From: Xylographa opegraphella
Lineage: Eukaryota
Assembly: GCA_022813865.1 (NCBI GenBank)
Contig: JALDZX010000062.1
Coordinates: 1 to 64,000 of the forward strand
Direction of reading: 5' to 3'
DNA: 64,000 nucleotides
Each line of letters begins with the position of its first letter. The stretch's first letter is position 1. The notes below the pieces were generated by a model. The model made no database searches. It had not been told where the DNA came from and worked only from the letters and a program-made list of their open reading frames with translations. Positions 2,683-59,312 of the stretch are shown here, in pieces. The position numbers and the translations under genes were made by a program.

Positions 2683-3551
2683 GATGCGGGATCGGTACTG
2701 GACCACGAATGAGGTAAGAGGGGATTCGGAGGCCGGAAATAGGAAATGCTTTGTCAAGCTGATCAGACGGCTAGGCCGAGCAGGGTGGTCGGATGATATT
2801 GGGGCCGCCTGGAGGGAGATATTGGAGAGGTGTGGATTAGCTGGATGGTAGGAAAGTGATCTGTCACTGGGCTGATGCTGAGTGGAGGCTGACTGTGCAG
2901 CTCTGAGAGGACTCGCATTGCAGCTCTGAGTTCTTATACGACGAGTAGTCTGCAGTCGCCGTCATGCTTGGCCAAATCAGCTCCGCAACTGGTGGGGTTT
3001 AGGCTATTGGCAGATGTGGGTGGCGGCACGGACTCGACGGCGCCGAGTGCCGAGCTCAGACTTCCGCCGTATCCTGCTTCCGCGATCAGGCATATTCGTA
3101 TCATGAATTGCGACGATCATACGCGCTATCAGAAAGAGCTCGTCGGGGCTGAACCGAAACCGGGTGTTAGGTACACTGAGACTTTATCGGTTTACACTTC
3201 TACTCCATGCGTCTTGACAGACGTTGGTTCCACATATTTGATCGCACTCGACGGTTGAGGACTATGCAAAGATCATTGACCGTCGGGTTGAGCAACGCCA
3301 GAACCTGTATGCGCCGTACTCGGGTATATGCTCCTCTGAATATGCTCCGACACCGACCGCCTACCTTACCTACCCAGATCCTGACACAACTATACATCCA
3401 AGGAGGCCTCAGACTGGTCAAAGCTTGACAAACGCCACGTCCGAATCGGTCAAGGTTGGACCACCAGAGGCCGAGCCAGCGGCCCACTTCGCAAGGCCGT
3501 GATATGTCGTAACTCGGCGCACCTATGTTCGTATGTGATGCCCGTCTCCAT

Positions 3552-4549
3552 TTATTGCGTTCTCGTGCTCGAAAAAGGGTTTGACGCTTCACATGCCCAG
3601 TCGGACATCGATAGGGTCCCGCTCGAGGCATCAAGACCATCGTAAGCTGTGAAGCATTCCTCGGGAGGTAAGCCGTCAAGATTCATGAAGGAGCTCCAGT
3701 CTTCCGGGTGTGGCATGGCTGCATTCGAATCCTCATCCGTCACCCAATCGCTGTATCCGCTTTGCCATTGAAGTGTCGGTGGACCTGAGTGATTTATGTT
3801 CTGAACGGGAGGCCATTTTCGTCCAGATCCACTACGGGTAAATTGAGAATTTGTGGGGCTCTGCAATGGCGGGGTTGGAAGTTGATTGGGAACGAAGGAG
3901 CCATTGTACAACAAATGAGGCCCATTGGACGCGCACCACGACACAGTTGACTCCCGATCACATTCCGATTCTACAGACGGTCGCCTTTGCATCATGTCCG
4001 CACCTTCGCTCACAAGTTTCTTCATCATTTCGTCGGTATCCTCTTCAAAACTGTCGAGCTTGCATTGAGGCTCGAGCTGGAGGACGCCTAGGGTCGCGAG
4101 GATATCGTGGGTCAATGGTCGACCGGTAGAGCAGTCGTTGAGTGGAGGACCTTCCCAGTGCTGGTCCTCAACCAAGCGCCTGTAAAGAATTTGCAGTCCA
4201 TTGACCAGTTGTGTTTGTTGATGTTCCAGCATCTCGACATATCTGAACGAGCAGGTAAGCAATCTTATAGTGAAACGATACCAGGGGCCACGTACCCTTT
4301 AGGATATATCTTGTCGTGAGACTTCTTGCGTTCCCCAAAGACGCAGATCGTGTTGTCTGACCGGCACCGACTGCACGGAGTGGTGCCATCACACTAAGGC
4401 ATCGGTCAATGTGCTGTACAGAGCATCGCCTCTGGGGTATCGTCACCAACCTTTGACTTCTTCAACCGGCAGCGATCACAGGCTTTGCAGACGCGCTTTC
4501 GCACATTGGCATCCCCATCCAACGGCGGAGTTGCTTGACGAGTCGCCAT
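3552..4549 (-). CDS. Zn(II)2Cys6 transcription factor, Fcr1 (fluconazole resistance protein 1)-like, 3 exons
   Basis: Spliced product MATRQATPPLDGDANVRKRVCKACDRCRLKKSK|CDGTTPCSRCRSDNTICVFGERKKSHDKIYPKG|YVEMLEHQQTQLVNGLQILYRR contains a complete C6 cluster followed by a coiled coil. Confidence 0.9.
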
Positions 4550-7500
4550 TGCGGTGCTATGGCGCAGAGGAAGCCGAGGGCGACGGGATTGGAGTAGCTT
4601 TTAAATGGGCCCGAGAGCTTCGTGCACCTTAAGGTTTGAGTGCCTGGAGGTAGGTGGGGGAAGCTTACAGCAGAAAGTTGACTAGATTCTTGAGTGGGTC
4701 AATATGATGAAAATAGTCATCATCGGCGGGAGTAGAGCTCGATTGTATGCGGTGATGTTACACCATCGTAATCGACGTGCAAAAAGTGATCAACTGGCGT
4801 AACAGAATATTAAATGGAAAGCGAGGGAGGGGGGAGTGGGCAGGCCCCCCCCCTTTTACACACGAGGACGGAAACGGATGAGATAAGAGGAAAGGTCTTG
4901 CACCGGGTTGCAAGATGACAGGCAGGAGCACGAAGACAATTTTGCTTTTCGGCGGTGGGCACAAGGGCGCCGCGTGAGCATGCAAAACCGACCAACGAGG
5001 AAGGGGGCGCCAGCGACGACGGCCGTTCGGCTTTAAGAGATGGGGGTGACGGAAGGGCAGGGTGAGTATAATCGTTTGAAGCGGAAGCTGGGTCTCTCGG
5101 GCCAGGCACGGTCATCGTTTGTCGAGCACGATGGGGAGCCACCAGGATCCCAGTCCGAGGCCGCTGCTCGAGCCAAGGACCGCCACCAAAAAGGGTGGGC
5201 TGGCACAATGGCGTTACGCTCGTGGCATTCGAGCACTCTACGAAGTATTAGCCCGGACATGAGCTGCAAACGAGAGGTGACAGAACAGTAGGTTTGCATG
5301 GTAGCAGAAAGGGAGGGGGTTTGAGTGGGCGGGATGTAAAGGCCGTCGACTCCGACGTCAAACGGGAGCGTGGTGAGAGGGTGGGAGAGAGAGAGGGAGG
5401 GGGGGACTGTGGGCGCTATGGCCGTCAGCAGGAAAAGCTTCGAGTGGGAGTTGGACAGGATTCGCAGCAGTCGGACCACGGCAGCGACCTAAAGCCGAGA
5501 AGCGCCCCGTCACCGTCAGTTTGTAACAGCACGAATCCGAATCCGCATCCGAGAAGCGGCCGAGCATGGCATGATAGTCAGCTTGCCAGAGAGCAGCAAG
5601 CAGCAAGCAGCAAGCCGCGAGCAGCGGGCAGAGAAGTCCGCCGAGTGCCTTTCATAATTCGTCGTCCATCGCGGTTGATTACCGATCTTCCGCTGAGCCA
5701 TTTAACATGGGGCCGGGGGCCGGGGGCCGAGGGCCCAGGATTGAAGGCGCCTTGCTTCTCTTGGTCGAAGGATGACGGAGCGTTGGCTGGATACACGGCA
5801 CCTCCAAGTCGAACGGACATTACATAAGTCGCATGTCAGACTCGTCTCTTTTGCTTGTCTGAACGTCTCTCGGCCACAAGCCGCTACTAGGTAGTCATCG
5901 ATTAATAAGTATGACTATTATCACCTACCTCACCTTGCCCTGGCTACCTTACCTACCTCCCTACCTTACCTTTACATACTTTAGTACTTACCTTACTTTG
6001 GTAAGGTAGTCGTCGCTTCGGATCTTGGGAAGCGGTTTTTGAACACACTGCCGAGTACTACGTGTCAAGGATGAGGTACGGTAGGGTAAGTATCCTGCGA
6101 GCCTACCTACCGAGCGAAGGTAGACTACCCTAAGGTACTCTGGCCTACACCCGAAGGCGGGTGAAATAGTGCGCCAGCTTACTCATCGCCCCAGCATGAG
6201 TGAGTCTCTTGAGGTAAGGTACCTTACCTTATTCATCTCCATGGCAGGAACTTTGGTCCTGCTCTTGCTCGGCCCCATCCTCGGACGGGGTTTCGATGTT
6301 GGACTTTGTTACCTACCGTAGGTATACCGTATGGAGTATCATGTCCAACCTCTGCTTGCGTAACGGATATCGCTCTGATGCATTTCCGACGTCAGTCGCA
6401 CCCGTGCGATGGGTATCTTGCATCTGCCCTTGAAGTGTGCTGGCTGCTGACCCGCTAATGAGTAGTCGCCACGTAGGCGTAGCATCCGGTTCACCATTCG
6501 GGCTTACAGCTAGACTCCTTCATAGTAGACTACCTTATATTCCTGCCGCAGGCATGTAAGGCAAGGTACCTTAGGGAGCCAGATCTGAAGCTGATCGAAC
6601 CGCACGTCTTGCATAGCACGCTCATGTACTCGTCCATGCCGTCACTCATTCTGTGTCCCGCGATCGCTGGTGCGAAATGGTGGACGGAGCCAGGATGGAG
6701 ATGCAGTGCAGTTTCACAGTACGAAGTAACGCTTCCACTCCGTTTCGAATACTTGTGACCCGGTCTGGTCTCACCCATCCATCATACCCGAAGGAGCCAT
6801 CTCCGGCGGATAGCTGCTTTTTCTGCAGACTCACTTTGTGCCATTGCTTGAGGGTTCGATTATGCGCGTCACCGCTCGCATCGCCTTGTGCCGGTACCGT
6901 ACTTCTATCGTTTGCGGTCGCAAGTCCGCACGTCATTCGCGCTTCCCGCTGCCATAGACAATTGGCATAGCTCGTTCCCCGAGTTCCCCTTGTCTCGAAA
7001 CCCTTGTCGGCAGGTTCAATGTTAACGAGCCTGGCTGCATTATTCATCGTTCTCCAACTGGAGCCGAGAGTAGGCTTTCCGTAGAAAGCTCCATTGTTCT
7101 ACCGAGTAGTATCATACCGCGCTGCGACGCCATCCAAGCTTTTGCATCCTTCACGATTGTTGCTGTCCCTCGCAGGGAGTCCCTCTGGTGCCTGGGCTGA
7201 GAAATCGATTGGTCCGCCAAGCCGACCAAGAACTTCATTGTGTCACAAGATGTCAGAGCGGAGACCGCTGTTAAATAAATGGTAACGCGAGCTTTGTGGG
7301 GTCACTGGGTGGGGCTGTGGAAACAGACCGCAGAAGAAACGATGTAATGATGATAGAGGCTCGGAGATACTTCCGAGGAGCAAGACTTGGCAGACTATGG
7401 ATAGTCTAGCGCCCGTCCAACCACAGCGGTCCAAGAGCTCGGAAGGATGCACACTACCTGACCTACGACCTTGCTAGGTATATACCTTACTTGTACTTGG

Positions 7501-8047
7501 TAGTACCTGCTTGGTAGTACCATAGGTAAGGTAAGGCAGGTAGTGCAGTACTGTGTGAATGCGTAGGGCGACTTGAGCTGGATTCCAGAGCTGTGCACCA
7601 ATCAGACCATAATATACAGCATACCTTATGCAATTCAACTCGTAGCGAAGTAAAAGCTACGTACTTTAGTAACATTGGCACAACGGACCGCCTTTATGCA
7701 TCCGTAACCTCCGTAGTAGGATATCGCTCCCTCGGTCGTCCGACACCCTCGCCTGGACTAGCCCCCTTGGGCTCTTTATCGGAGCACGCTAAACCGTAGG
7801 CTAAGATAAGGCAGACGAATCCCACAGCCAGCACAATTGGGTGCCGTTCAGATGCTTGTCGACCATTATTCTCACGCACTCATCACGCATAGACTCCTTC
7901 GGTCGCGTGAATTATTGAAACGGTCATGTTCATGCTAGCCCTGACGTCTTCACACCTTGTCCCGCAGACGCCGTTGGGCAGCTTGACGCGTACGGCATAT
8001 CTTTGTTCCGTTACTGTTGCGACCCCACGCCCGTGAAACCAACAGCT

Positions 8048-9784
8048 ATGGCAGAACGCGCTCAAAGAAGCCTCGGCCATGCGTCCAGGTCCAATCACTC
8101 GGTGAGTCCTCGCTCGAGCGAAGATTCTCTGCGCCCGGCAACAAGTCGATCTCCCTCCATCCACCTCAAGTCTATGCCGAGCCCCACTGCTGCCCATCGC
8201 CATTCCTTCAGTGAGCAGTTACGCGGCATGCCGGCCTCGCCCCGCTCCAGTCGCCAGTTTTCGTTGTCTTCTGCCGGGGTCCAGGATCTCATGAACAACC
8301 CTCCGAAAGCTGGAGCTGCAGATCCGGCCTTCGTCGGGCGGGACTGGCACGATATCGCGGTTGGGGAGCTCGTGGATGCTGCTGAAGTGCGCTTTGTGGA
8401 ACTCGATACTGGGGTTGAAGATGCTACGAATGTGAGAGTTATGGAGCATAGATCCTAGAGCTGCCAAAATATCTAACATTCATTCACAGCTGTTGATGGA
8501 TTCGGCGTCTACTGTACTCCTCATCCGCTCTACACGGAACGATACATCGGCGATCGGCACCTTTGACTACAGAGATCTTAACCAATATCTCCTCTTCGCT
8601 ACCGGACGCCTGCGACCAGACGAAGAGCACCTTGCTTTCTATCAAGACCTTGCAAAGAAAGCTCAGCAGGGCCAAGAGATCCCTGTCAGAGATGCAAAAG
8701 CTTTGGGCAGTAAAGAACCCTTTGTGGTGTTGCCACATACTGCGAAACTGACCACAGCCGTCGAGACATTTGGAGGTGGTGTTCATCGAATTGTCGTTGC
8801 GAAAGAAGGAAGCGACGAAGTTACAGGTATTCTGAGTCAATTGAAACTGGTCAACTTTCTTTGGGAGAATGGGCGTAGCTTTCCAGTCATCGACCAGTTG
8901 TATCCACAAACCATCAAGGATTTGGGAATTGGCTCGCAGCATGTTATATCCGTCAAGTATGTAATGATGACCTACCTTGCTCAGAGTAGATGGACACTGA
9001 CTTCCGTCAAGCGGTGATAAGCCTCTAAAGGAAGCTTTGGCTCTGATGGATAAAGAAGGCGTCTCGTCTCTGGCCGTCGTTGACAACCAACTAAACGTCG
9101 TGGGAAATATCTCGACTGCGGATGTCAAGGTATGTGCGGAGAGTTCTTCTTTATGAGTCCCGACTAATGGAAAACAGCTCTTGACGAAGTCGAGCTCCGC
9201 TCCTCTGCTCGATAACACATGTATCCATTTCATCTCTGTTATCCTCTCAACACGTGGTATGAATGATGGCAAGGACTCTTTTCCAGTGTTCCATGTCAGT
9301 CCGTACTCCACATTAGCCCACACGGTCGCCAAACTGTCAGCAACGAAATCTCATAGGTTCTCTTTACTCTAAGAATTCATCTGTTGCCAAGATCAGTTCT
9401 AACATATAATACAGAATGTGGATCGTCGACTCCCCCTCTCCGTCGTCGTCTGGCCCTCCTACTCCATCTATACCGTCTGCAGTCTTGCACAATCCGCTCC
9501 ACGTTGCTTCCTCTCCACAGGCCACGCCGTCGTTTATCTCTGCCTCCGCCTCTCCATCAGTGTCGGCTTCCTCACTTCCTGGTGCCAGTATGTCTGGCCG
9601 CTTGTCTGGTGTCGTGTCTCTCACCGATGTTTTGAACCTCTTTGCTCGTGCTAGCGGCCTCAATCCGAACGACCCAGCCGAGACAAGACGCCATCGACGG
9701 CGGTCGAGCAGTTCTTCCCTCGTAAGAAGCAGTTTGGAATCCGCAAGAAGCTCCAGTGTCGACGTTTCCAAGATATTGCGGTAA
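8048..9784 (+). CDS. SDS23: Sds23/Moc1-family CBS-domain protein, 5 exons
   Basis: Ser-rich N-terminus, then [65 protein letters not shown] and [20 protein letters not shown]; introns start near 8432, 8957, 9130 and 9357. Confidence 0.9.
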
Positions 9785-10736
9785 CCAACCAGTGGCAGCC
9801 TCTACATATGCAACTATACAAGCTGTCTACATCTTGAGATGTACGAGTGCAGTTCTGGACGGTTCAGTGTTGAGTTTCTCTTTCTTATCTCCAGTGTAAA
9901 CGTGCATATATACCTGCGAGTCAGAGCGCTTTAGCGGAGCACGATTCATAGCAAGACATAACGTTCCAAGACTGTGAGTTTTGCGAATGGCTATCAAAGA
10001 GGGGCTGTGAGATGAAGAGGGGATGGATATGGACGCAATGTAGCGAACCGTCTTTCAAATTACATATGCAGCATCCATACCCGAGATGCGCTGCAAAGCC
10101 TAAGTCATCTTTGCATAGCATATCGAGGAGATTTTGATAGTATCTCCGAAATAGGACTCCTTTTGTCCTTGTATAAAAACTGATGGTTTTAATCCCACAA
10201 GAACCGTGGTCATTCATGAAGTTCACAAACACATGGCTTTCAAATTGCTCCTATCACACGCACCTGCCCTTGCTTTGAGTGCCGTGCCCCTTGTGAGGTG
10301 ACTCTCTACTGGATTGGTGCTCGGCGATTTACCTTAGATTTCCTTTCCAAGCTCGTAGGGTTTGATAGACGTTGTGGTAATTCCACTCACAACTTGTACA
10401 ACTGGTCGTCTACCATGGTCTTCGACAAACTCATTTCCCGTCACTCGTTGACTTTAGAGGCAACCAATCTCCCGTTTTTGCTGTACTTGTGTTGAGCAAT
10501 ACCCTGTCAGGCCGTCGATTCACTGGCGCTGAAATTGCATGCAATATCGCTAGCAGGCAAGCAATCCCGCCTTCACGATACTTAAAAGCCTCATCGTCTT
10601 CGCCCACTTTGCTTCTTTATCCTCCAGCAAAATATTACAATCTGCTTCGATCCAAGAGGTTCTCTTACTTTGTCTACTGTCTCACCTCTCGCTCAGAACA
10701 GTGTTTATCAGTCTAGATACGTCAAAGAACGCTTCG

Positions 10737-12816
10737 ATGAAGGGTTTTACTTTCCTGCTCGGCACGAGTGTCTTGCTCTGCGGTTATCTCACAGGGGCAG
10801 CTCCAGTGACGGTGAGAGAGTCGGCCACAGAACCGCCACAACTGTGAACAGTGGCTGACTATTATATTAGAAAGCAAGTTCAACTGGCAGCCTTGTGGAA
10901 CGCATTGCTCTGGCAGCATCCCAGGATGTAAGCTCATCCACCGCGGCTGTAACTTCCCCAGAGAGATACTGAAATTTAGCACAATAAGGCTGGTTGTCTG
11001 CCTGTTGGAGCACTAGCAGGTTCCAGCGAGCGGTGTTGCACTCGTATTGCTTATGATGGTGTCTGCCAGCGTGTCGATGAGCTCGAACAGGTAACGCCTC
11101 CTAACCACAAGTCTACCTCATTTTTTATCTGCAATGCTTTGTGGCAGAACAATCATTACTGATCTCTAGAAACCAAGACTGGATGTCTGCCTAGGGGTAC
11201 ATCAACGGGAAACGCAAAGCTGTGTTGCTCTCAATTTACCAAGTCTGGCATCTGCGAACCTGCCCCTAGCTTCGCCGAGAAACGCGACGAGGCATGTGTC
11301 CCATCTTTATGTAGCAAAAATCATGCCGGTGTTGCACTGACCATGTCCAGACCGTTTGTGCAGAAGTCGGTTCCAAGTCCTCTTCGAAGAATAAATGTTG
11401 CTCTGGTTACGCCAATTTAGATGGCACATGCCAGCCTGTCCCAGTGCGTACTTTGGCCGCAGTACCATAGGCTAGTGTTTCCGTTATGCTGACTGGTCTA
11501 GGCTATCTGTGTGCCAAATTATGCGCCAGTATCCGCCACTGAACCAAGTTGCTCCGCTTGGCCCGTCAACGGTATCTGCGACCCCTTTCCGCCATCTGAA
11601 ATCAAACGTGATGAGGTATGCACTGATCGCTTTAACGGGTGGAGCCTGCCAGATCATTGACCGGGTATAGGACGTGTGTGTATCTCTCGGAATGAGGATT
11701 TCTTCGGAGAAATCATGCTGCGCACCATTATCTAACCAAGGTGGCTACTGTCAGCATGTTCCAGTACATGACCCGCCTCGTAAATCGCAAGAAGGCATAC
11801 TGATTATGTCCAGAACCCGTGCATACCGGACGGCTTGCCCCTGTCGTCGTATGCGGAATGTTGTTCCTATTTTCAGTACTTCGGTATCTGCTTACCTCAA
11901 CCTACGAACCCCACTCTTGTAAGATTTCTGAACCATTCAACCACCTTACGGCCGCGGCATGTATCTTATGGCCTAATATTTTTGCAGAAGCTACTTAAGC
12001 GGAATGCCGATCCGGTCGAGACCGGATGCTTGATAGCTGGGCGTCATACCCGTTTCGAGGAGCATTGTTGCTCGGGTAATGCTGAACTCAGCATCTGCCA
12101 GCCTATTTCGGAGCCTTGTGCACCAATTGGCGCTACCAGTGGCCCGAATGGGCCATGTTGTTCTGCTTTCTTTGAACTTGGCGCTTGCCAACCTTATCCT
12201 TCAATTGATTCCAGTGAATCGGTAAGCTACCTGCGCTCCGTTGTGTTAGCTTGTGGTGGTAAATTGTCTTATTTTGGCTGATACGCTGTAGCACAAGAAC
12301 TATAAAGCCTTGAGCCGCATTGCCCTAGGCTTCCAAGAGCCGTGCTCTCCAGGCTCTGCAGACCCTGCATGTACTGGTTTGCTCAATGTACGAGATCATG
12401 AGAACGGCATTCCACCAGCCAATGGTCCAATTCACTGCTCAGTAGAGGGAGGAGAGCACACATGTGGCACTTCGACCGACATCGAGAGCCGCATGGTTTC
12501 ACCATCCCACCCTATGTCACCCGAAGACACTCCCGCGGTAGGACCATGTGCTGAAGGTTCAGCAGATCCTGCTTGTGGTGGCTTGCACGGTGCACCCATT
12601 CTGGAGAATAGATTCTGTCCTTTGCACTCCACGTCTCCCGGCTGCACTCTACCAGGAAAGCTAAACGATGTGATCATCACAGATTCTGAGAATCACAACA
12701 TGATCACAACACCTGCAACCGAAGAGACTTGTCCCTTGGATATGGATGGAAATCCAGATTCCGGGTGCAACGGTGCCGTGCCAATTCCGGTTCATGCTGG
12801 AGGCCAGCAGTTATGA
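10737..12816 (+). CDS. Secreted Cys-rich multi-repeat precursor (~503 aa; Kex2-processed repeat protein-like), 10 exons: 10737-10811, 10871-10927, 10989-11090, 11178-11291, 11351-11443, 11502-11615, 11671-11763, 11814-11918, 11988-12221, 12292-12816
   Basis: Signal-peptide-like MKGFTFLLGTSVLLCGYLTGAAP. Every exon length is a multiple of 3 and the introns have CTRAY-type branch sites. Eight C-x12-CC-x8/9-C repeats (one has SC in place of CC), KR sites (EKRDE, IKRDE, LLKRN) and C-terminal C-x8-C loops. Confidence 0.82.
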
Positions 12817-13012
12817 AAAATCCGAAGGTAATCTTACGTTTCTTCACAAAAATACTCGCTTGATTGGATACTCTAACCCTTCTCTTCACAGCGGGCCAAT
12901 CCTTGAACGCCGAGCGAGCTCGATTAGACAAATTTGCATTCGTATTCAGCCTCAGAATTTTTGGGACTCATATGTTGAATGCGATTCTTGCTTGGAAAGA
13001 TCAAAGGCAAGC

Positions 13013-13075
13013 GGTTTGTAGATATTTAGCTTTGGCTGCAGGTTTGTAGATATTTAGCTTTGGCTGCAGGTTTGT
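13013..13075. repeat. Perfect 28-bp tandem duplication (ggtttgtagatatttagctttggctgca x2 plus a partial copy)
   Basis: Read directly from the sequence. Confidence 0.9.
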
Positions 13076-15304
13076 CTGGCTAGGTAGATACTCATCTGCT
13101 GCTGATACGTAGACCACGAAATGAAAAGTTGAACAAGCTGGATTTGACACAGTGACACTATACGAAAAGGACTTGAAAACATGAGCATTGAGTGCTGGGA
13201 CTGTTCGGCACCAGAACTGGCCAACTAGAATGCTTCCAACGCCGTCCGTAAATACTGGATCCCAAAATTCGATTTTGAGGCAATTAGTCAATTTGGATGA
13301 TCCAGTCCGAACTGGCCAAAAAGTTCAGTATTGGTATTGCAACCAACGCATATTCGTACTACCCAGCGTGCTCGTTCCTCTTGCCCGCATTTTGAATCGT
13401 ATTCCTTTAAGTCGTTGCAAGCTCGAATCAAACCCACATGACCGGAATTCGCGATATCGTTCTCGTAATGGAAAAGCCCGATAAACTAGCTACAAGTGGT
13501 AATCGAGAAATCTTGCAATGGTTGCGCCTTACGAGCTAGTGGCAGACAAAGCTTCGACCGAAACAATCAAGGATCTTTGTTCTACAGAGATATGAAGTAG
13601 AGCGGTATTAAACAGGTTCCAGAATAGGCACGAAACGACGAGCTTGTTTGCAATCAAGTCAAGGATACCACAGCGATTCCCATACTCGCTTTTCAGACAC
13701 TGTTTTTCTGTTGCGATTCTTTCTCCTCGACATGCTCGAGCTTTGTTTCAATTGCTGCGACACGCTGCTTGCATATCCTCAACGGCGCGATGATGACGTC
13801 GAGAGGATTGTCCATCAGGAGTATCCACATCATCCTATCAGGAATGCACTCAACTCTGCCTGGACACACTTGAGCGCGTCGATGATACTTTCATCACATT
13901 AGAAATGATATCGTACAAACTTATTCACGAGCCAGATGGTTTCGAAAGTGATTGGGCTCCAGTGCTTGAATAGATGCTTTACTTGCTCGTCGGAGTAGTC
14001 TGTATTTCAATAACTGGAGGCAACAAATAGGTTGATCACACATAAGACTGGGCTCACTAGTAACGAAGAAGTTCCCTAAGAATCGGCGATACCATGGAAA
14101 GACTTCACTGCGTAGTCACTGAAAATCTTGACCGTAGCACTTAACTTGCCACTTTTAGCTATGATTTGTGACAATCCTCTGGCAGTGCACTTGTTAGCGG
14201 TGGGCAGAGATCATAGTGGTTGCTCACTTGGCTGTTTATTTCCTGTAACGGATGTGCGATTATAGATTCCGAGTGAGCTTCTTTTCATGTGTAAGATCGG
14301 ATGTCGCGAGACGAATTTCTAATCTCGAATTGTACACTCATGGCTTACCGTGTCTCCTGCTAGATAACGACAAACATGAGTAAATGCTGTGGTGTGGTCA
14401 CCTTTGAGATATAGAAGGGTCTTTCGGTTCGGAAAACGCTGTACAGAACGTTATTTCAAGTCCAGTGATAGATATAGAGCACATAGAAGTCAATACAACT
14501 GTCAGAGAACAAGATACAGATATAAATAAGTACACGACGGCCAGCTACGCAATGTAATCTTGACGAAGCCTTTTTTCAAATCGCGTGAAATATTGCTGAG
14601 CTGAAGAATCCTAGCCGCTCAATCGTCCGCCATAAGAAAGTTTAATGGCCCACCTTGGACCTGCTCAACAGCTATTCCGCCAATAGAAGCACGACTATAT
14701 TGAGTAGCTGCTCAATCTGAGCCTGATTTCGGGAGTCCGGTGCCTTTGACATACAGCTGTAGTATGGCCATTGAGGACGCTCGATTGTACTTAATGTCGA
14801 CTTCACCCTCTGTCATCGTGTTCGCCGATGATATTCCCAAACTGATTGGCTCAGAATCCTTAGTAATTCCTTTTTCCGTTCATATTATTGCTTTCTCGTT
14901 TGCGAAGGCCTGAACATTATTCAATGGCGCAGCTTTGCCGCCAGAATTCATTGCTGACCACTTCGTGATCCACTCAGCTTCGTTAAATATTCTTCTAGAA
15001 GAGGATCACAGAACAATTTTGCCAGCTTGAGGGTGCCAATACAATCCGAAAGACCATGTAGGGTACCTAGTCTACAGACGACATTGAAGACATTGTAGCG
15101 GATGAAAGCGTAATTACGATAAGCCGAGGGCTGCCCAGCAAACAGTACAAACACTGGTACAAGGCCCGAGGCCCAATCGAACGATACCGAGAGAGTGAAC
15201 AAGCACGACGCTGATGATCCGGCAGTCATTCCTTTATGATGAATTCACGAGGAGTAAGATTAGAAGGAACAACTCTGTGATATCTGACCAGATCCGAGCG
15301 CCTC

Positions 15305-43048: not shown

Positions 43049-44710
43049 ATGGCCTTCCCAGGTGCCGGAGCTTATGGGTCTCAGCAGCACCCGCACCAGA
43101 ACAACTATCCGCCCGGTCCACCAATGCCAATGTACGGCCAAGGCTTTCCACCCCCTCAACAACAACCATTTCCGTAAGTCTGCCTGTTTATGCTGCCTTG
43201 TATGTGCGTGCTTACTGACATAATGTAGCCCACAGGGATATGCTCCGTTCCCCAGTCAATCTCCTCAGTATCCACCACAATCTCCACCCCCTCCGCAAGG
43301 CTATGGTTACCAGTCACCTCCTCCTCCAATGTACAATAACGGATACCAGCAGGTTTGTCCTCTCACAGAACATAAACTGTGTGTCACCGCTCAATTTTCA
43401 TAGCCGCCGCCTCCAAACTATGGGTATAACCAACCGGGACCACAAGGAGGTCCTCCCCCTCCCCAGTATGGTGGGCGTCCTCGTAAGTCCCCTGAATGGT
43501 CTATGAGACAACCTCGTCTGAGGCTTTCTAGCTATGCCGAACGTCAATTCAAATTCCTATATTCACGGAAACCCTAATGCACCTCCACCACCACCACAGG
43601 CGATGCAAAGTTTCGGCAATGGAGCTCCCAATAATTATGCTTACCAATATTCCACTTGCACCGGAAGTCGGAAAGCTCTGCTTGTCGGCATCAACTATTT
43701 TGGGCAAAGAGGACAACTGAGAGGCTGCATCAATGATGTGAAGAATATGTCTACGTACCTCAACAATCACTTCAACTACAAAAGGGAAGACATGGTTATC
43801 TTGACTGATGATCAACAAAACCCTATGAGTCAGCCTACAAAACAGAACATTTTACGCGCGATGCATTGGTTAGTTAAAGACGCGAAACCGAACGATTCGC
43901 TCTTCTTTCACTATTCAGGTACGTCTTCCGGTCCGACGCCCTGCTGACGTGGCTAACCCGTTCAGGTCATGGGGGACAGACACCAGACCTGGATGGCGAC
44001 GAGGATGATGGTTATGACGAGGTCATTTACCCCGTAGATTTTCGAGTCAACGGGCATATCGTCGATGATGAAATGCATCTAATAATGGTGAAGTCGCTTC
44101 CGCCCGGTGTGCGCTTGACAGCCATTTTTGACTCATGTCATTCTGGTTCCGCCCTCGATCTTCCTTACATTTACTCCACACAGGGTGTCCTCAAGGAGCC
44201 CAACCTTGCCAAGGAAGCCGGGCAAGGTTTACTTGGCATTGTTTCTGCGTATGCACGCGGAGACATGGGCGGTATTGCTTCAACCGCTATGGGATTCTTC
44301 AAGAAAGCGACAACCGGGGATACAGCGTACGAGAAGGCCCTACAAACCAAGACCTCTCCCGCCGACGTGATTATGTGGTCGGGCAGTAAGGATGAGCAAA
44401 CCTCGTATGATTGTATACCATCATATCAACGACCTCATGTACTGATCAGATCCTAGACAAGACGCCCAGATTGGTGGCGAGGCTACTGGTGCTATGTCGT
44501 GGGCGTTCATCACTGCGCTGAAGAAGAACCCACAGCAAAGCTACGTACAACTGCTGAACAATATTCGCGACGAATTAGCCAGCAAATATACGCAGAAGCC
44601 GCAGTTAAGCTGCAGTCATCCTTTAGGTATGCTTCACTTTCTCCCACTGCTTCCTGTTCGCTATCAGCTGACGCATTCGTGTAGATACAAATCTACTATA
44701 TGTAATGTAA
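43049..44710 (+). CDS. MCA1: Type I metacaspase, multi-exon
   Basis: P/Q/Y-rich prodomain; [24 protein letters not shown]; catalytic HYSG|HG and FDSCHSG; ends [19 protein letters not shown]. Confidence 0.96.
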
Positions 44711-45262
44711 AGACGGGACTAGAGGGCTTGGTCATTCTGGGAAGGCAATGGTGGATGGGCTTAATTGAGCGGATATGGGCAAGCGTCTGGGATCAACTTA
44801 GGCGGGCGGCGTCTATGTAATGTTGCAAAAGCCTTCTAAAGAGCATGCATCTGTGTCAACTACGACATGTAATTACTTACAGTATTTTGAAACAAGCATT
44901 TCACCCGGTTGACGGTCTCAAAAGCCACTGTGTAAAATGATGGATGTGGTGCACTCTGTGCACCGAGTACCTCTCTATGCGTAATCTGCCCAATAAGTAG
45001 GACAATGGTGAACGAGTCCCTCTGGATCGCACATGGGAGTTAATGTCGATTACATCCTGCTGTTACATGCATGAAATGATAATTGGACCTTCCACTTCCG
45101 TAGAGGGAATAGAATGAGAGCAGGAATTCTATACCTGATGCTTGGTCGCTATTGGTTCGGAGTATCGGCAACCGGCACACTACCCTGGCTCATATTGTTA
45201 TCAAGGGTACAAAAAAACTGTGGAAACCGCAAGTCGAGGTATTCCATGTCCAACATCTTACA

Positions 45263-53006: not shown

Positions 53007-54871
53007 ATGTCTATGTCTTCGGATCCTGAGAAGACCACGGCGTATACGACTTCTGATCCGATCACGCCCGATAGCTCCAGCGGCGATGAAGGCTATGTAC
53101 TTGACGCGCATGAACTGGGTGGCAACAGCACACTGAAAACTACACCCAATGGAAGTATCATTTTGTGAGTCAGAGCATACAAAACGTACCCATCAACAGA
53201 GTTCATTACAGCCAGGCGTCCGCAGCCAAGCGATAGCCCGGACGATCCTCTCAACTGGAGTCAGTGGAAGAAGCACGTCCTTCTACTTGTGATTTCGGCC
53301 ACAGCGTTTCTTCCAGACTATGGCGGAGCTCTGGGCGCAGTGACTCTGATTCCCCAAGCCCTGGACTGGAACATGACACAAGAAGGAGTTTTGCAAGCTC
53401 TCGTCGGGAATGTCTTCGTCATGTACGTATAACTGGGGACTTCATCCTCCTACCCGTGTATCGCGTACACGAAGCAAGTTCAAGCTGTTGAATATGACTC
53501 CAAAGCAACGCAACTTTATTGCATTCCTACTATGACCTACTAACCGGACATGTTCCAGCGGGGCAGGTGGACTCTTCAGCGTTGCATTCATGGCATATTT
53601 CGGACGCCTTCCAGTCCTATTTTGGTTTACCTTTTGTGCTCTTTGGTCGGCCGCATTTTGCGCAGGGGCCGTGAACTTCACGCAATACGAAGCAGCACGT
53701 GTACTCAGCGGTTTCTTCTCGACAGTGGCCCAGGGCGGCGGCTTAGTGTTCATCAATGATATATTCTTCGTTCACGAACATGCCCGCAAGATTAATGTCT
53801 GGTCGTTCTTCATTGTCTTGTCGCCATACTTGGGCCCACTGCTGACGGGCTTTATTATTGCCGCAAGCACATGGCAATGGGCTTTTGCGCTGTACGTCCT
53901 CATGACCGGCTTGTGTCTGATAGCTATAGTCTGCTTTGGTCAGGAGACATACTATGACAGGAGAATCCCGCCGGAATCACAGCCACTGCGCAAGTCTCAT
54001 CTCCAACGACTGCTCGGAATTGAGCAGTACCGAACGCGCCTTACAGGTAATACGTTCTCGCAGGCTATGATGCGACCCATCAGAGCGATATGCAAACCGG
54101 TTGTCTTCATCAGTACCATCTACTACACGCTCATCTTTGCGTGGGTTGTCGGTAATACTTCGATTCCTGGCTTCTACTGGAAACAGCGACTGACTGGCGC
54201 CATAGGGATCAACACCACTCTCAGTATCTTCCTTCAACCGCTCTACGGATTTGGACCCCGCCAGATCGGTAAGCATCATCCTCCACGCTCACCCCATACT
54301 CCCTCCCATGCCGCCTATTAACCCGCTACCTCCCCCCGTTCCAACAGGCTTCTTCTACTTCGCCCCCATTGTTGCTACCATCCTTGGCGAAGCCAGCGGG
54401 CATTGGCTGCACGACTCCATCGCCGCGCGCTGTATGCGCCGCAACAGCGGCCGCCTCGAAGCCGAAGCCCGCCTGTGGGTCATCTACATCGCCACCCCCT
54501 TCATGGTCGCGGGGCTCGTGCTGCTCGGCTTCGCGCTGCAGCACGGCTACGCCTACATGGTCGCCGCCCTCGGCTGGGGCCTGTACGTCTTCGGCATCAT
54601 GATCGCCACCGTCGGCGTCAACGCCTATGTCCTCGACGCCTACCCGGAGACCGCCGGTGAGGTCTCCGCCTGGCTGAACTTCGCCCGCACCACCGGCGGC
54701 GTCTTCGTTACCGAGTGGCAGGTCCCGTGGGCGACCGCCGTCGGGCCCGCCGTCGCGCTGGGCACCCAGGGCGCCATCACGGCCGGGGCCTTCGTGCTCG
54801 TTGTGCTGTTGCAGCTGTACGGGAAGCGGCTGCGGCATTCGGGGGGCAGGCTGAACTTTCGCACGAATTGA
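53007..54871 (+). CDS. MFS transporter (DHA1-like), multi-exon
   Basis: PQPSDSPDDPLNWSQWKK, YFGRLP, IFFVHEHARKINVW, LSPYLGPLL and EAEARL motifs; multiple TM helices. Confidence 0.88.
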
Positions 54872-55350
54872 TGGATTTTGGGGGGTGGGTTCAACGGTGT
54901 GGATGAGAGGGATGTGGGGCATTTGTGGATAGGGGCTTGGTGGTTGGACTCGCCGTGCTGTTGTGAGGTACATTCTACACGTCTGTGGAAATGAAAGCGC
55001 TTGACGGTGCTCTTGTCGTCTCTCTCTCTCTCTCTCTATATGTGTGCAAGTGTGTATCTCCCTCACCTGGAGTTTGTTGTCGATGATGCGAATTTCGGGA
55101 CACGAACTTTACTACCAAGTGACAGGATTCAACGCTCTTGTGGATATAATCCTTGGCTCGTATCATATCTTGCATTTGATGGTCGTAACGCGTGGATGCC
55201 TCCATAAGCCCAGGCACACACTCCACCCCTTTAGCCACGTATACCTAGAGGGTCCCATCCCTAGTCCTACACCCTTGCCAAGATATACATATAGTGAAAA
55301 CACAGTATACAATCCCCACTTTCCCGACCGATCTCGCACCCCCCCAAAAC

Positions 55351-58300
55351 TCAATAGGCAAAGATCTTCTTCAAACCCTCCACCGCCGCGTTCCGGATCC
55401 TCGCCGCCGGCACCGGGCTCCTCTCCCTGACCCTCCTCTCCCTCTCCTTCCGCTCGCTCTCTCCCCTCCGCGGCACCGCTGGCCTCTCCTTCTCTTTGCG
55501 TTCACTCTCCCTCCGCTTCCCTTCCGGCCTGTCCCGCTCCCTCTCCTTCCCCTTCTCCTCCCTGCGCACCCTCCGCTCCCCATCCGCGCGCCTCTCGCGT
55601 CGAACATGCCTTACCTCGCTTTTCTCCCGCTCCTCGAGTCTCTCTCGCTCGCGCTCCTTGCGCCGCTCCTCCTTCCTTCGCATACGCGCCTCGTCTTCCA
55701 CTCTCTCCCTCGTCCGTTTCGCTTCCTCTTCTTCAAGCCTTGCCTTTTCTCGCTCCGCCACGATCCTAGCTTCGGCTTCCTGCTCTTTTTCCCTTTGTCT
55801 CCATCGCTCTTCCCGCCGCGCCCGCCGTGCCTCGTCCTCTTCGTGAGTGCCTTCCTTCCTCTCCTTGTCCCTTTCTCTCTCCCGATGCGAGCTTCTTCTC
55901 GTCTCCACCACTGGTCGGTCGACGATTCCCACCGCCTTGCCAAGCCCCTTCCAGAATGGTAGCCTGGCCTCACTCTGTGCTTGTGCCTGCATCTTCGGCC
56001 GCGCCAAAGATCGTGAACCCTCTGCAGCTGGCGCGTCCTTGTAGCTCTGGCTCCGACGATAGCTGGACTTCGGCCGCTCGTCAGCGTCCTTGGAAGTCAG
56101 AGTCGAGGAGCGCTTGCTGCGCACATCGCTTTCGCGGCGTTTGCGCTCGGGGCGCTCGGGCTTCTCGAGACGAGTGACCTCGCCGCTTTTGGTCGAGGAG
56201 CTCTTGCTGTAGCGACGCTCGCGCTCCCAGCCAGTGCGGCGGCGGCGGCGTTCCGATGTTGGAGAGGGAGGTGCAGAGAGCGGGGTTACATCGTCACCGG
56301 GAGGGCCGTCGATGATGGCTGATTCATCGAGAGGCACAGGGTCTGAGACTGAAGGTGACTGGATAGCATCGTCCACGATATTCGAAGGTTCCGCAGCGGT
56401 AGTTTCTTCGGCTGTCACCGCCTTCTCCTCTGGGATAGATGCTTCTTGCCGGGCAGTTTCTGCTTGTGGAGCAGTCAAGGCCTCTTCGACAGCCTCAGTG
56501 GATTGCGAATTTGGTACAGGTTCCAAAGTGCTTGGCTCAGCAAGCTCTTCGACGATTAGAGGAGCGGTAATTACTTCTGGTCCAACAGGAGAGAGCTCGA
56601 CTTCGGCAATAGATATGGCAGCTTCAGTAGGCGGCCCATCATCGATAGGACCTGTCTTCGTAGTCTCTTCAAGATCTGTCCTTGTAGGCTCAGAGGAAGT
56701 GGGTCCGATATTGTCCTTCTCGACGGGGAGATCATCAGTCGAAACAATTTCTGAAGCAGAGATTAAAGTGGCACCCTCGCCACCCTCGATCGTTGGAGCT
56801 TCGTCGGGAACCACTTCTGTAACCGTATCATCCTTAGAATCGGGAGCGGGAGCAAGGTCGGTCATGATAGCTTCTTCCACGATTGCTGGCTCATGGACGG
56901 CTACGCCTTCAGTAGGTACCGGGTCATCAGCGGGTGCCGACTCGTCAGTAACTATTGGTTCTACGCTTGCTGGGTCTTCGACAGGTGCCGCTTCTTCGAC
57001 AGGTGCCGCTTCTTCGACAGGTGCCGCTTCTTCGACAGGTGCCGCTTCTTCGACAGGTGCCGCTTCTTCGACAGGTGCCGCTTCTTCGACAGGTGCCGCT
57101 TCTTCGACAGGTGCCGCTTCTTCGACAGGTGCCGCTTCTTCGACAGGTGCCGCTTCTTCGACAGGTGCCGCTTCTTCGACAGGTGCCGCTTCTTCGGTAC
57201 TCACCTGTTCTTCAAAAGGATTGCTCTCCGTCTCTGCTGGCGTGTCGACTGGAAAATCACCAGGTACTGGAGTCTCTGTACTGGATTCTGACTTGATATT
57301 ATTGTCGTCGACTATAGGCAGACTCTCCTCCAAGGAGGCAACGTCGTTGATTACAGTGGTAACATCACTCGCAGCTGGTTCTGGTGATGTACAGACCGCT
57401 TCGGAATTTCCCTCGGGCTTGTCATCTTCGGACTCTACTGCGGTCTCGATAGCTCCAATGTCGGGCGTATCAGGTTCAGCCTTTGCAGTAGCGTCGGGTT
57501 CTCCCTTAGATTCGATATCACCGATTGTGGACGCAGACTCTTCTATAGAAGGTACCTGGTTGCTTGTGGTAATGTCTTCGCTCACAACGGATTCGGAACA
57601 TTCAACGATTTCTTTCGTACCCTCGTCTTGCACATCGGGTTCTTTTTTCTCCTCAGCGTCAGGGTTTGGGATTGATGTTTGCGCTGCGTCGTCCACTTTC
57701 GAATCTTCGTTAGCAGCAGGATTCGCTTCTGCAAAAGATTCCTCGCTAGGAATCTCTTCCGCTGCAGAAGGTACAGATTCTGATTGTACAACCTCATCGG
57801 ATACTGAACCCTCAATTTTGATTTCCGCAGGCTTTTCAACTTCCACAACGTCTGGCGATGGACTGTCAACAAGGACCTCCGAAGCAGCTTGTTCGCTCGG
57901 TTCTAGAGTTTTGGTCTCGGCAGTACTCGCTTCAGGCGGTGGCTCTTCTGCTTCTACAGTTCCTGGCGGTTGTTCTGCCTCTCCACTTGCGACTGTTAGA
58001 GGAGCTTCTGGTTCGACTGCTTCTATTACTGTCTCGCTTGGCTCTTTGATAACTTCTGCAGGTGGCTCTGATGGTAAATCGTCTGCTTCAACGAATGGCT
58101 CGCTTGAGCCTTCGGCGACCGCATCTGCCGTCGGCACTTCAGCTTCGACTATTGGCTCCGTAGTCGAAGGCATTGACTCGTCAACGGCTTCCGGTATAGG
58201 CGCTGGGTAAATATCCTCTGATGGCACGTTATCCTGCTCTTGGGGAACTTCAGGAGCAGGTGGTGGAGGTGACAATATAGCCTCCTTTCCTTTCTTTGAC

Positions 58301-59312
58301 TTGTCTTTCTTCTTACCCGATAATTTCTCCGCTTTCACTTTACTTGGTAACAGCTCAGTTTTCTCCTTGCTTCCTTTCTCCTTCTCCATCTTGTCCTTAC
58401 CAGCTTGCTTCTTGACCATCTTAAGCTTTCGAGACTTATTCGCCTTGTTCTTTCCAGGTAGTAGTTCTAGGGCAGAGGCGGCTATCACTTCCGGATCGAA
58501 ACTCACAGACTTTAGAGGTGGAGGATCGGTAGGAGCTGTTTCACTAGCTGTTTCCGTTGCAGCTACCACTTCACTCACAACGACCTCAACAGATGCAGCG
58601 GGCTCGATAGGCTCTGGAGGTGCCGCTTCCAAGGGTACTTCATCTGTGGAAGCGGACGGCTGTTTTCGTTAATATATATTCACAGTCCGTAGAACAAACA
58701 TAGATGATCATTCACTCACCTCTGAATCAGTTGCCACAACTACCGGCTCAGATGGATTAGCTTCGTCAACTGTCGGTTCAACTGGTGGATCTTGAACGGC
58801 TTCTGTGTGGTCGACTTCTGGTTCATCCTTCGGGATGTCGACCACTATGTCTTCCGTCGGCGGATCTTGCTGTTGCTCTTCACTCAGCGTGCTCTCGCCT
58901 CCAGGCTCATCCGGGACAGTTTCAGTGTCCACTAGCTCCGGTTCAGGTACTGGCTCACTCTCGGTTGGTGCAGAAACTTCCGTTACTTCTGTTTCACCTG
59001 ATCCATTTTCAACGGCCGGAGGCTCAACCGACACATCTTGGTCGCATCTCGTCAACAGATGTGTATGATATGGAATGAACCTGACATGAGATGCTTACCA
59101 ACAGTATCGTTTAAATGATCTTCACTAGGCACCTCCCCATCGGAGTTTTCCACTCCTGGTGCTACTGGTGGTTCGAACGATGGCGGAACAATTTCTTCTG
59201 CGGGAGGTGGAGTTGGTGGTTTCCAAACGGGTACGTTAGTAAATCGTAAGGAATCTTGATTAAAAGTCTGATATTGAAATACTGAGGGCTTAGCATACGA
59301 AAAGGCCGGCAT
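55351..59312 (-). CDS. Large acidic, Pro/Glu/Ala-rich low-complexity protein with an Arg/Glu-rich C-terminus, at least 3 exons; start uncertain
   Basis: 1093-aa ORF plus upstream ORFs 58708-59055 and 59052-59324 of similar composition, separated by short GT..AG introns. Confidence 0.72.
56975..57196 (-). repeat. Coding minisatellite: 12 perfect 18-bp units encoding EEAAPV
   Basis: tcttcgacaggtgccgct x12 plus tcttcg, read directly on the + strand. Confidence 0.97.

Follow-up and report, generated by a model that had tools for sequence, protein, structure and literature searches.

A ten-exon gene of Xylographa opegraphella encodes a putative secreted precursor of paired four-cysteine modules

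Results

Eight cysteine modules in a spliced reading frame

We analyzed the first 64,000 nucleotides, forward strand, of contig JALDZX010000062.1 from Xylographa opegraphella (GenBank assembly GCA_022813865.1), hereafter the window. On the plus strand, between an ATG at 10737–10739 and a TGA at 12814–12816, it carries a gene of ten exons and 506 codons, the 506-residue product of which contains 42 cysteines and eight tandem copies of a small cysteine module. In our view this is a genuine gene, lineage-restricted and from a genome of the filamentous-fungus type, and it encodes a putative secreted pre-pro-polyprotein that a Kex2-type protease would cut into four two-module mini-proteins. Secretion, disulfide pairing, cleavage and activity are what we infer from the sequence, and we assign a probability of about 0.45 to this reading taken as a whole. 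The gene model was spliced manually, with short introns of the fungal type. It bears out an original prediction, made from the DNA letters alone, of a ten-exon frame of the secreted type with about 503 residues; the exon translations reproduce exactly the signal-like N-terminus, the LVER motif and all eight module strings that were quoted there.

Seven of the modules have the complete frame C-x12-CC-x8/9-C, and the spacing between their first and second cysteines is exactly 12 residues in all seven. Modules 1 to 6 occupy one exon each: module 1 (10995–11066 from Cys to Cys) lies in exon 3 (10980–11090), whose 3' boundary is uncertain, module 2 (11184–11255) in exon 4 (11178–11291), module 3 (11357–11431) in exon 5 (11351–11443), module 4 (11508–11579) in exon 6 (11502–11615), module 5 (11677–11751) in exon 7 (11671–11763), and module 6 (11820–11891) in exon 8 (11814–11918). 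Modules 7 (12027–12098) and 8 (12117–12188) share exon 9 (11988–12221), with no intron between them. In module 4, the CC pair starts with Ser (AGT, one base from TGT) instead of Cys, leaving three Cys in this module; 31 of the 32 module cysteines are thus retained. The cysteine frame is therefore not fixed as had been claimed: module 4 departs from it, and two cysteines of the C-terminal tail are replaced in a relative described below.

The modules are 23–45% identical to one another, and 22.6% identical outside the Cys columns. The proposed hypervariability of the loops between the cysteines amounts to this comparison of old paralogs, in which several non-Cys positions are conserved as well: Pro recurs at +2, Gly at +4 and before the last Cys, Ser after the CC pair, and Q-P after the last Cys. 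Profiles were built in a leave-one-out manner, and each held-out module was ranked together with the 1,871 open reading frames (ORFs) of the window outside the gene (1,872 sequences). All eight held-out modules came out at rank 1, with E values between 3.4e-10 and 3.1e-3 (1.6e-07, 9.2e-09, 3.4e-10, 0.0031, 4.7e-04, 3.5e-06, 1.2e-04, and 4.2e-08 for modules 1 to 8, respectively), against 0.11–0.28 for the best background ORF. The eight-fold repeat is not a chance pattern. No further copy of the module was found elsewhere in the 64-kb window.

Lys-Arg sites separate pairs of modules

The only dibasic dipeptides ([KR][KR]) in the 506 residues are three Lys-Arg (KR) sites at residues 116, 185, and 258. 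Each of them follows an even-numbered module, 10–15 residues past its last Cys, in a Pro-rich linker; in shuffled sequences, 1.78 dibasic sites are expected anywhere in the protein. KR site 1 (11280–11285) and KR site 2 (11604–11609) lie in the linkers of exons 4 and 6. Exon 8 has a Pro-rich linker as well, and KR site 3 (11997–12002) is found in exon 9, upstream of module 7, within the motif LLKR, which places a Leu at P4; NA-DP comes next. Cleavage in silico at the three KR gives four two-module fragments of 95, 69, 73, and 247 residues, the first of which would measure about 81 residues if LVER were also cut.

Because one KR occurs after every second module, the expected products are four two-module units and not the cocktail of eight peptides that had been envisaged. 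Release of eight single-module peptides would call for a non-dibasic protease acting within the pairs. Each module does look independent, and six of the eight have an exon of their own; the spacers within the pairs, however, contain neither Lys nor Arg, hence neither a monobasic nor a dibasic site, and the dibasic sites are all between pairs, which makes this outcome very unlikely.

Several regularities follow the same pairing. Exons 4 and 6 have 38 codons each and both end in KRDE, while exons 5 and 7 have 31 codons each and both end in a CQ-x-VP motif. The spacer within a pair, from the fourth to the fifth Cys (C4–C5), is 6 residues long in three of the four pairs and 10 in the first pair in the chosen model. 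Sequence identity is 34.4% between odd-numbered modules, 33.6% between even-numbered modules, and 30.1% between odd- and even-numbered ones, and the similarity of the module DNA reaches z values of 5.1 for modules 3 and 5, 4.0 for modules 2 and 4, and 4.3 for modules 4 and 8. Given these exon lengths, KRDE endings, spacers and odd/even likeness, together with the placement of the KR sites, the gene seems to have arisen by an old four-fold duplication of a unit of two exons and two modules that has phase-0 introns as its borders and a Kex2-type site at the boundary.

A signal-like N-terminus and a long C-terminal tail

Exon 1 (10737–10811, 25 codons) opens with the frame's first ATG, is followed by a GTGAGA donor, and encodes a signal-peptide-like N-terminus. 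Inspection of hydropathy and residues reveals a Lys at position 2 and a hydrophobic core, roughly 16 residues long, followed by T-G-A-A-P, the 9-residue Kyte-Doolittle means rising to 2.26. Exon 2 (10871–10927) encodes a short Ser/Thr/Ala-rich putative pro-region, in which LVER (residues 33–36, 10892–10903) comes after a 10-residue stretch where S, T, A, G, K, and P abound. Its position and context fit a putative LxxR cleavage junction.

Exon 10 (12292–12816) comprises the 174 codons of an acidic, Pro/Gly/Ser-rich tail and the stop codon. The tail forms five C-x8/11-C loops and shows an internal repeat with a z value of about 5, which was reached by 1 of 500 shuffles. Its composition favors P, G, S, A, and T, and it lacks a hydrophobic C-terminus of the kind that signals a glycosylphosphatidylinositol (GPI) anchor; N-glycosylation sequons (NxS/T) number 0 in the whole protein. 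The tetrapeptide R-I-A-L occurs twice, after LVE in exon 2 (10901–10912) and after ALS in exon 10 (12316–12327), so that its copies mark both borders of the module array. The repetition of these four residues may be due to chance, or they could serve as a second processing motif, of the monobasic type.

The tail exon has one relative, the 171-residue ORF-type protein P0004, encoded on a 155-kb contig of another assembly. The two sequences are 60% identical (90/149) with a single in-frame gap of one residue. P0004 stays open across the stretch corresponding to 12805–12891 of the window, where its extra residues match another frame (12813–12860) and then frame 0 again. Such a switch of frame and back within about 60 nucleotides past the stop codon points to two small indels between both genomes. 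Both frames past the stop codon of the window end at a TAA at 12874–12876, and the segment 12828–12891 is intron-like (GTAATC ... CTAAC ... CAG). Owing to the frame switching and to this intron-like stretch, the exact C-terminus and the 3' structure of the gene are uncertain. The contrast between 149 frame-preserving codons and the switching of frame right after the stop speaks for coding constraint on the tail.

Splice signals and coding potential

All nine introns measure 50–87 nucleotides and are in phase 0, because the length of each exon is divisible by three. A CTRAY branch motif is present in seven of the nine, with the branch A located 9–15 nucleotides from the intron end, compared with a background of 9.4% (0.094) in 5,000 random segments of the window with intron-matched lengths, searched in a 6–35-nucleotide range. 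Seven donors are GTRNGN-like or near to it; those of introns 3 and 4 are GTAACG and, at 11292, a GC donor (GCATGT), respectively. The acceptors are YAG, apart from the AAG of intron 3 at 11177, which is found 8 nucleotides past a TAG at 11169. Exon 6, the paralog of exon 4, also ends in KRDE but is followed there by GTATGC. GC-AG introns are a known minority class. For intron 3, an alternative pairs an upstream GTGTCG donor, in phase 1 of the coding sequence, with the TAG acceptor; it retains both flanking modules and shortens the spacer of the first pair from 10 to 6 residues. Enumeration of spliced frames with a CTRAY motif demanded in each intron returned 0 models, and a wider automated enumeration returned 348, of which 0 contained all modules, since the donor and acceptor filters barred the GC donor and the AAG acceptor.

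Ten long ORFs of the window served to train a codon-usage log-ratio, with which coding potential was scored. The proposed frame scores +0.035 per codon, versus −0.126 and −0.309 for the two other frames, and the introns score about −0.3, like non-coding DNA. The ORFs on the opposite strand across the gene are all shorter than 100 residues. A search of 9500–14000 against Rfam detected no RNA family, and Tandem Repeats Finder (TRF) detected no tandem DNA repeat within the gene. In its 3' flank, at 13013–13075, a perfect 28-bp unit is repeated 2.2 times (TRF score 126).

These data also bear on whether the locus is decaying or silent, as a recent pseudogene or a relic that was never expressed. 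The GC donor of intron 4, the AAG acceptor of intron 3, the lost Cys of module 4 and the weak codon signal would be in line with decay, as would the disagreement with P0004 over the frame near the stop and the lack of any predicted protein for this gene in the collections searched. On the other hand, 506 codons in ten exons run without a stop, nine splice pairs are all in phase 0, seven of nine branch motifs are in place, 31 of 32 module cysteines have been kept at 22.6% identity elsewhere in the modules, and the tail is in frame in a second assembly. Weighing both sides, we find decay or silence quite unlikely.

Database relatives of the module

No match near the cut-off was obtained when the eight exon translations were compared with Pfam at E values up to 10; the sub-threshold rows, NHL (E 0.22), Toxin_18 (E 1.5), and MSSP (E 3.5), are non-significant. 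Against the sequences in the PDB, the module profile and the tail gave 0 matches each, and exon 9 gave three unrelated ones at E values of 1.4–5.9. A word-index search for longer proteins with the ORF that runs through exon 8, intron 8, and exon 9 yielded 244 candidates, none at E ≤ 0.01. In the ESM Atlas, the best score for exon 9 was 0.76 (a viral MGF 110 cluster), compared with 0.9 as the level for a lead.

The module profile was then compared with 1,835,955,588 representative proteins, three of which scored at E ≤ 0.001. Two of these, P0001 and P0002, lack the Cys frame and consist of tandem repeats of low complexity, and both were discarded. This left P0003 (E 2.5e-4), an unnamed singleton of 196 residues and the sole carrier of the module among the 1.84 billion proteins. 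Apart from it, the gene and its modules are missing from the protein collections searched. P0003 consists of five tandem modules of the form C-x12-CC-x8-11-C with linkers of 2–5 residues; it is Lys-rich, has no tail, and begins with a hydrophobic, signal-anchor-like N-terminus. It shares the C-[ILF]-P-x-G and CCS-x-[FY] positions with the modules of the gene, and when it was compared with the window by tblastn, its best match was the module region (E 0.004). P0003 itself has no relative among 5.8 billion proteins and no usable match in the ESM Atlas, and neither P0003 nor the tail found a relative in the bacterial and archaeal genomes searched. P0003 comes from an assembled read set and is the only evidence of the module outside this lineage.

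The architecture of P0003 matters for a reading in which the same secreted protein stays uncut, as an intact modular chain in the extracellular space or associated with the wall, its KR sites being buried, unused or incidental. There, a signal-anchor-like N-terminus is followed by five modules that no dibasic site separates, and in the gene itself there are just three KR and none after the fourth pair. Composition alone predicts 1.78 dibasic sites in the whole protein, and the tail, with its abundance of P, G, S, A, and T, would also suit such a chain. Yet all three KR occupy the homologous linker position in Pro-rich and acidic surroundings, one of them as an optimal LLKR, and the protein has neither N-glycosylation sequons nor a hydrophobic C-terminal signal of the GPI type. 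We regard an uncut chain as somewhat unlikely and favor the processed precursor.

Predicted structure of the module

The AlphaFold2 model of exon 9 alone was unusable, with a predicted local distance difference test (pLDDT) value of 47. When an alignment of exon 9 and the six single-module exons was supplied (7 rows, all six exons falling on module 8), module 8 reached a pLDDT of about 80. An alignment that included P0003 split module 7 and was left unused. The model predicts for module 8 a β-hairpin that follows the CC pair and precedes the last Cys; it is formed by residues 61–63 and 66–68 of the exon, with the turn at the conserved Gly. The odd number of modules in P0003, five, with linkers of 2–5 residues, together with the pLDDT of module 8, suggests that the module is most likely an independent fold.

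Comparison of the model with the PDB by Foldseek returned six matches at E ≤ 10 (E 1.1–9.8), none of them at E ≤ 0.001. Five of the six are spider-venom knottins, with the tandem "double-knot" toxin DkTx at the top (E 1.1, probability 0.18), and the remaining one is a vaccinia protein. We treat this weak resemblance to knottins as a lead, not as evidence; together with the sub-threshold Toxin_18 row, likewise non-significant, it is what the proposed toxin-like or venom-like nature of the peptides would draw on. The four-Cys frame could be derived from a knottin frame by removal of its second and fifth Cys, and it is compatible with a disulfide-directed β-hairpin (DDH), which has been described as two disulfides, I–III and II–IV, on a hairpin (PMC11891777). 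A bolder version of our reading would make the gene a venom-style library of four bivalent, "double-knot"-like mini-proteins, each built from two copies of an undescribed, knottin-related hairpin module with two disulfides, diversified by duplication and shuffling of phase-0 exons, and acting on receptors, channels, or cell surfaces of other organisms; we hold this to be unlikely.

Genomic surroundings

The neighboring genes with database matches are of the housekeeping type: an aldose epimerase, UNC-50, an FHA protein, an arginase, Mto1/centrosomin-like proteins, a metacaspase, a mitochondrial-type IF2, and major facilitator superfamily (MFS) transporters. The metacaspase-type gene (Peptidase_C14) extends over three plus-strand ORFs at 43522–44817 and is presumably split by introns. 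In about 8 kb upstream of the module gene (2900–10700), none of the 47 ORFs of 70 residues or more matched Pfam; this region has ORFs of up to 288 residues and a GC content of 0.51–0.56, and further genes that resist annotation or are rich in introns may lie there. Within the window, GC content is highest at 54000–58700 (0.596), where GC skew and AT skew are both strongly negative; this part is overlapped by a minus-strand ORF of 1,105 residues without a Pfam match (55351–58668).

No tailoring-enzyme family was found near the gene among 222 ORF translations of the window, a set from which 25 ORFs of at least 85 residues nested in three long ORFs had been left out. DUF3328/UstYa, which had already been reported missing from the window, is found in 0 of these 222. 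This result bears on the notion that the gene encodes a dikaritin-type or other fungal precursor of RiPPs (peptides made by ribosomes and modified after translation). A signal peptide followed by repeats that KR separates is indeed a feature of ustiloxin-type precursors (PMC7329392). The units found here are, on the contrary, Cys-rich and 69–95 residues long, far too long for the short cores of such precursors, and with no DUF3328 or other tailoring family among the 222 translations we rejected the RiPP reading, which retains next to no probability.

Discussion

How the favored reading would work, and what weighs against it

If the gene works as we propose, the signal peptide would be removed, probably after residue 22, and the chain would fold in the endoplasmic reticulum as a string of eight small C-x12-CC-x8/9-C modules, each of which most probably forms a unit of its own with two disulfides and a β-hairpin. 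A Kex2-type protease of the Golgi would then cleave at the three KR, in Pro-rich linkers that lie exposed, and may also cut at LVER. Four different two-module mini-proteins would thereby be released, three of about 7–10 kDa and a fourth that keeps the 174-residue tail of Cys loops. A role of these products in extracellular binding, in defense or as effectors is a guess.

A number of observations weigh against this scheme. As regards processing, no KR follows the fourth module pair, and the persistence of KR at the other boundaries could reflect inheritance from the duplicated unit instead of selection. P0003 has no KR sites at all, so tandem modules can apparently also function uncleaved. As regards disulfide pairing, the loss of one Cys in module 4 leaves an odd number of cysteines, 41, in the mature chain, and in P0004 two of the tail cysteines are replaced and one Cys is new. 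The gene model has its own weak points: two of the nine introns use unusual signals (the GC donor of intron 4 and, in intron 3, an AAG acceptor after a TAG), two of the nine lack a well-placed CTRAY motif, the frame of P0004 differs around the stop codon of the window, and the codon score of +0.035 is low beside those of the window's housekeeping ORFs (+0.04 to +0.34). As regards the structure, the half of the AlphaFold2 model that contains module 7 has a pLDDT below 50, and the similarity to knottins is non-significant even for the best match.

Significance

[quoted passage not shown] Genes made of many exons of 30–40 codons escape ORF-based protein catalogs, and P0004 illustrates this blind spot, given that the long last exon of the relative has been cataloged alone. 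With one module per exon and all introns in phase 0, the layout also offers a clean case of exon duplication in a fungal secreted protein. A practical value, as stable disulfide scaffolds with possible bioactivity, is speculative. Fungi commonly have orphan secreted proteins rich in Cys, and finding one more is the less surprising for that.

No comparable protein was found in the literature searched, which comprised titles and abstracts and, for the KEP surveys, the main texts. Relative to this literature, the module, the paired unit and the architecture of one module per phase-0 exon are not described, while a secreted Cys-rich repeat protein with Kex2 sites is of a known kind.

Comparison with known systems

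The closest parallel is with the KEPs, among them the α-factor precursors and Rep1 of Ustilago maydis, which likewise combine an N-terminal secretion signal, here signal-like, with KR-separated repeats (PMC6339444). The published in-silico screen asks for a predicted signal peptide without any transmembrane segment, for at least four fragments after cleavage at KR or RR and for at least three similar motifs that cover at least 15% of the protein (PMC6339444). The three KR of the gene give four fragments, all four of which carry a module pair, and exons 3 to 9 make up 288 of the 506 codons; the repeats were recognized here by the leave-one-out profiles and not by FIMO. In its fragments and repeats, and putatively in its N-terminus, the gene formally agrees with these published definitions, in line with the original assignment to the KEPs. 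An XA/XP signature of the Ste13 type has been defined for KEPs (PMC6339444), and the NA-DP that follows KR site 3 fits it, at this one site. Repeat units of 3–352 residues have been described (PMC6339444). The present gene differs in that its unit is a pair of disulfide modules of 69–95 residues and not a short linear peptide, that its repeats are 23–45% identical, and that it has nine introns, modules in separate exons, and a large non-repeat tail. The main text of the same survey mentions solely two-Cys pheromone-like peptides and no multi-disulfide unit (PMC6339444), and in the main text of a second survey the words cysteine and disulfide occur 0 times (PMC7329392).

The pro-region invites comparison with the Kex2-processed pro-domain (K2PP) effectors, such as SnTox3, ToxA, and SIX1/4/6. 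[quoted passage not shown] At the level of sequence, LVER has the required motif, in keeping with the pro-region ending in LVER that had been put forward. The differences are a pro-region of only about 14 residues, further internal KR between the repeats, and no relation in sequence or fold.

Polyhydrophobins, such as CFTH1 and CPPH1 of Claviceps, also contain several Cys-rich units per chain, with C-CC-C-C-CC-C as the order of the cysteines (PMC12375992). Pairs 1, 3, and 4 of the gene show this order, while pair 2 has seven Cys. Since multi-domain hydrophobins exist, with tri- and pentahydrophobins known from Claviceps (PMC12375992), each module pair might be read as one eight-Cys hydrophobin domain. 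No exon, including exon 9 with its whole pair, matched PF01185 or PF06766 at E values up to 10, however, and no hydrophobin appeared among the PDB sequence or Foldseek matches. The units are hydrophilic, with grand average of hydropathy (GRAVY) values of −0.23, −0.25, −0.13, and −0.32, against mostly 0 to 1 in hydrophobins (PMC12375992), the C4–C5 gap measures a mere 6 residues in three pairs, and the module occurs in an odd number in P0003. We rejected this reading on the Pfam result, the negative GRAVY, the short spacer and the five modules of P0003, and consider it extremely improbable.

Inhibitor cystine knot (ICK) and DDH peptides, including DkTx (PDB entries 6cuc and 5irx), resemble the paired units of our favored reading in their CC pair, in a hairpin ending in Cys, which is predicted here, and in their tandem pairs. 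An ICK has six Cys and three disulfides, one of which threads the ring of the other two, whereas each module here has four Cys. The gene further differs from both classes in being a fungal polyprotein with introns between its modules and in having no significant match to either. P0003, finally, differs in the absence of KR, in its shorter linkers and signal-anchor-like N-terminus, in its Lys-rich composition, and in the lack of a tail, yet it carries five modules in tandem with the same C-x12-CC spacing as the gene of X. opegraphella.

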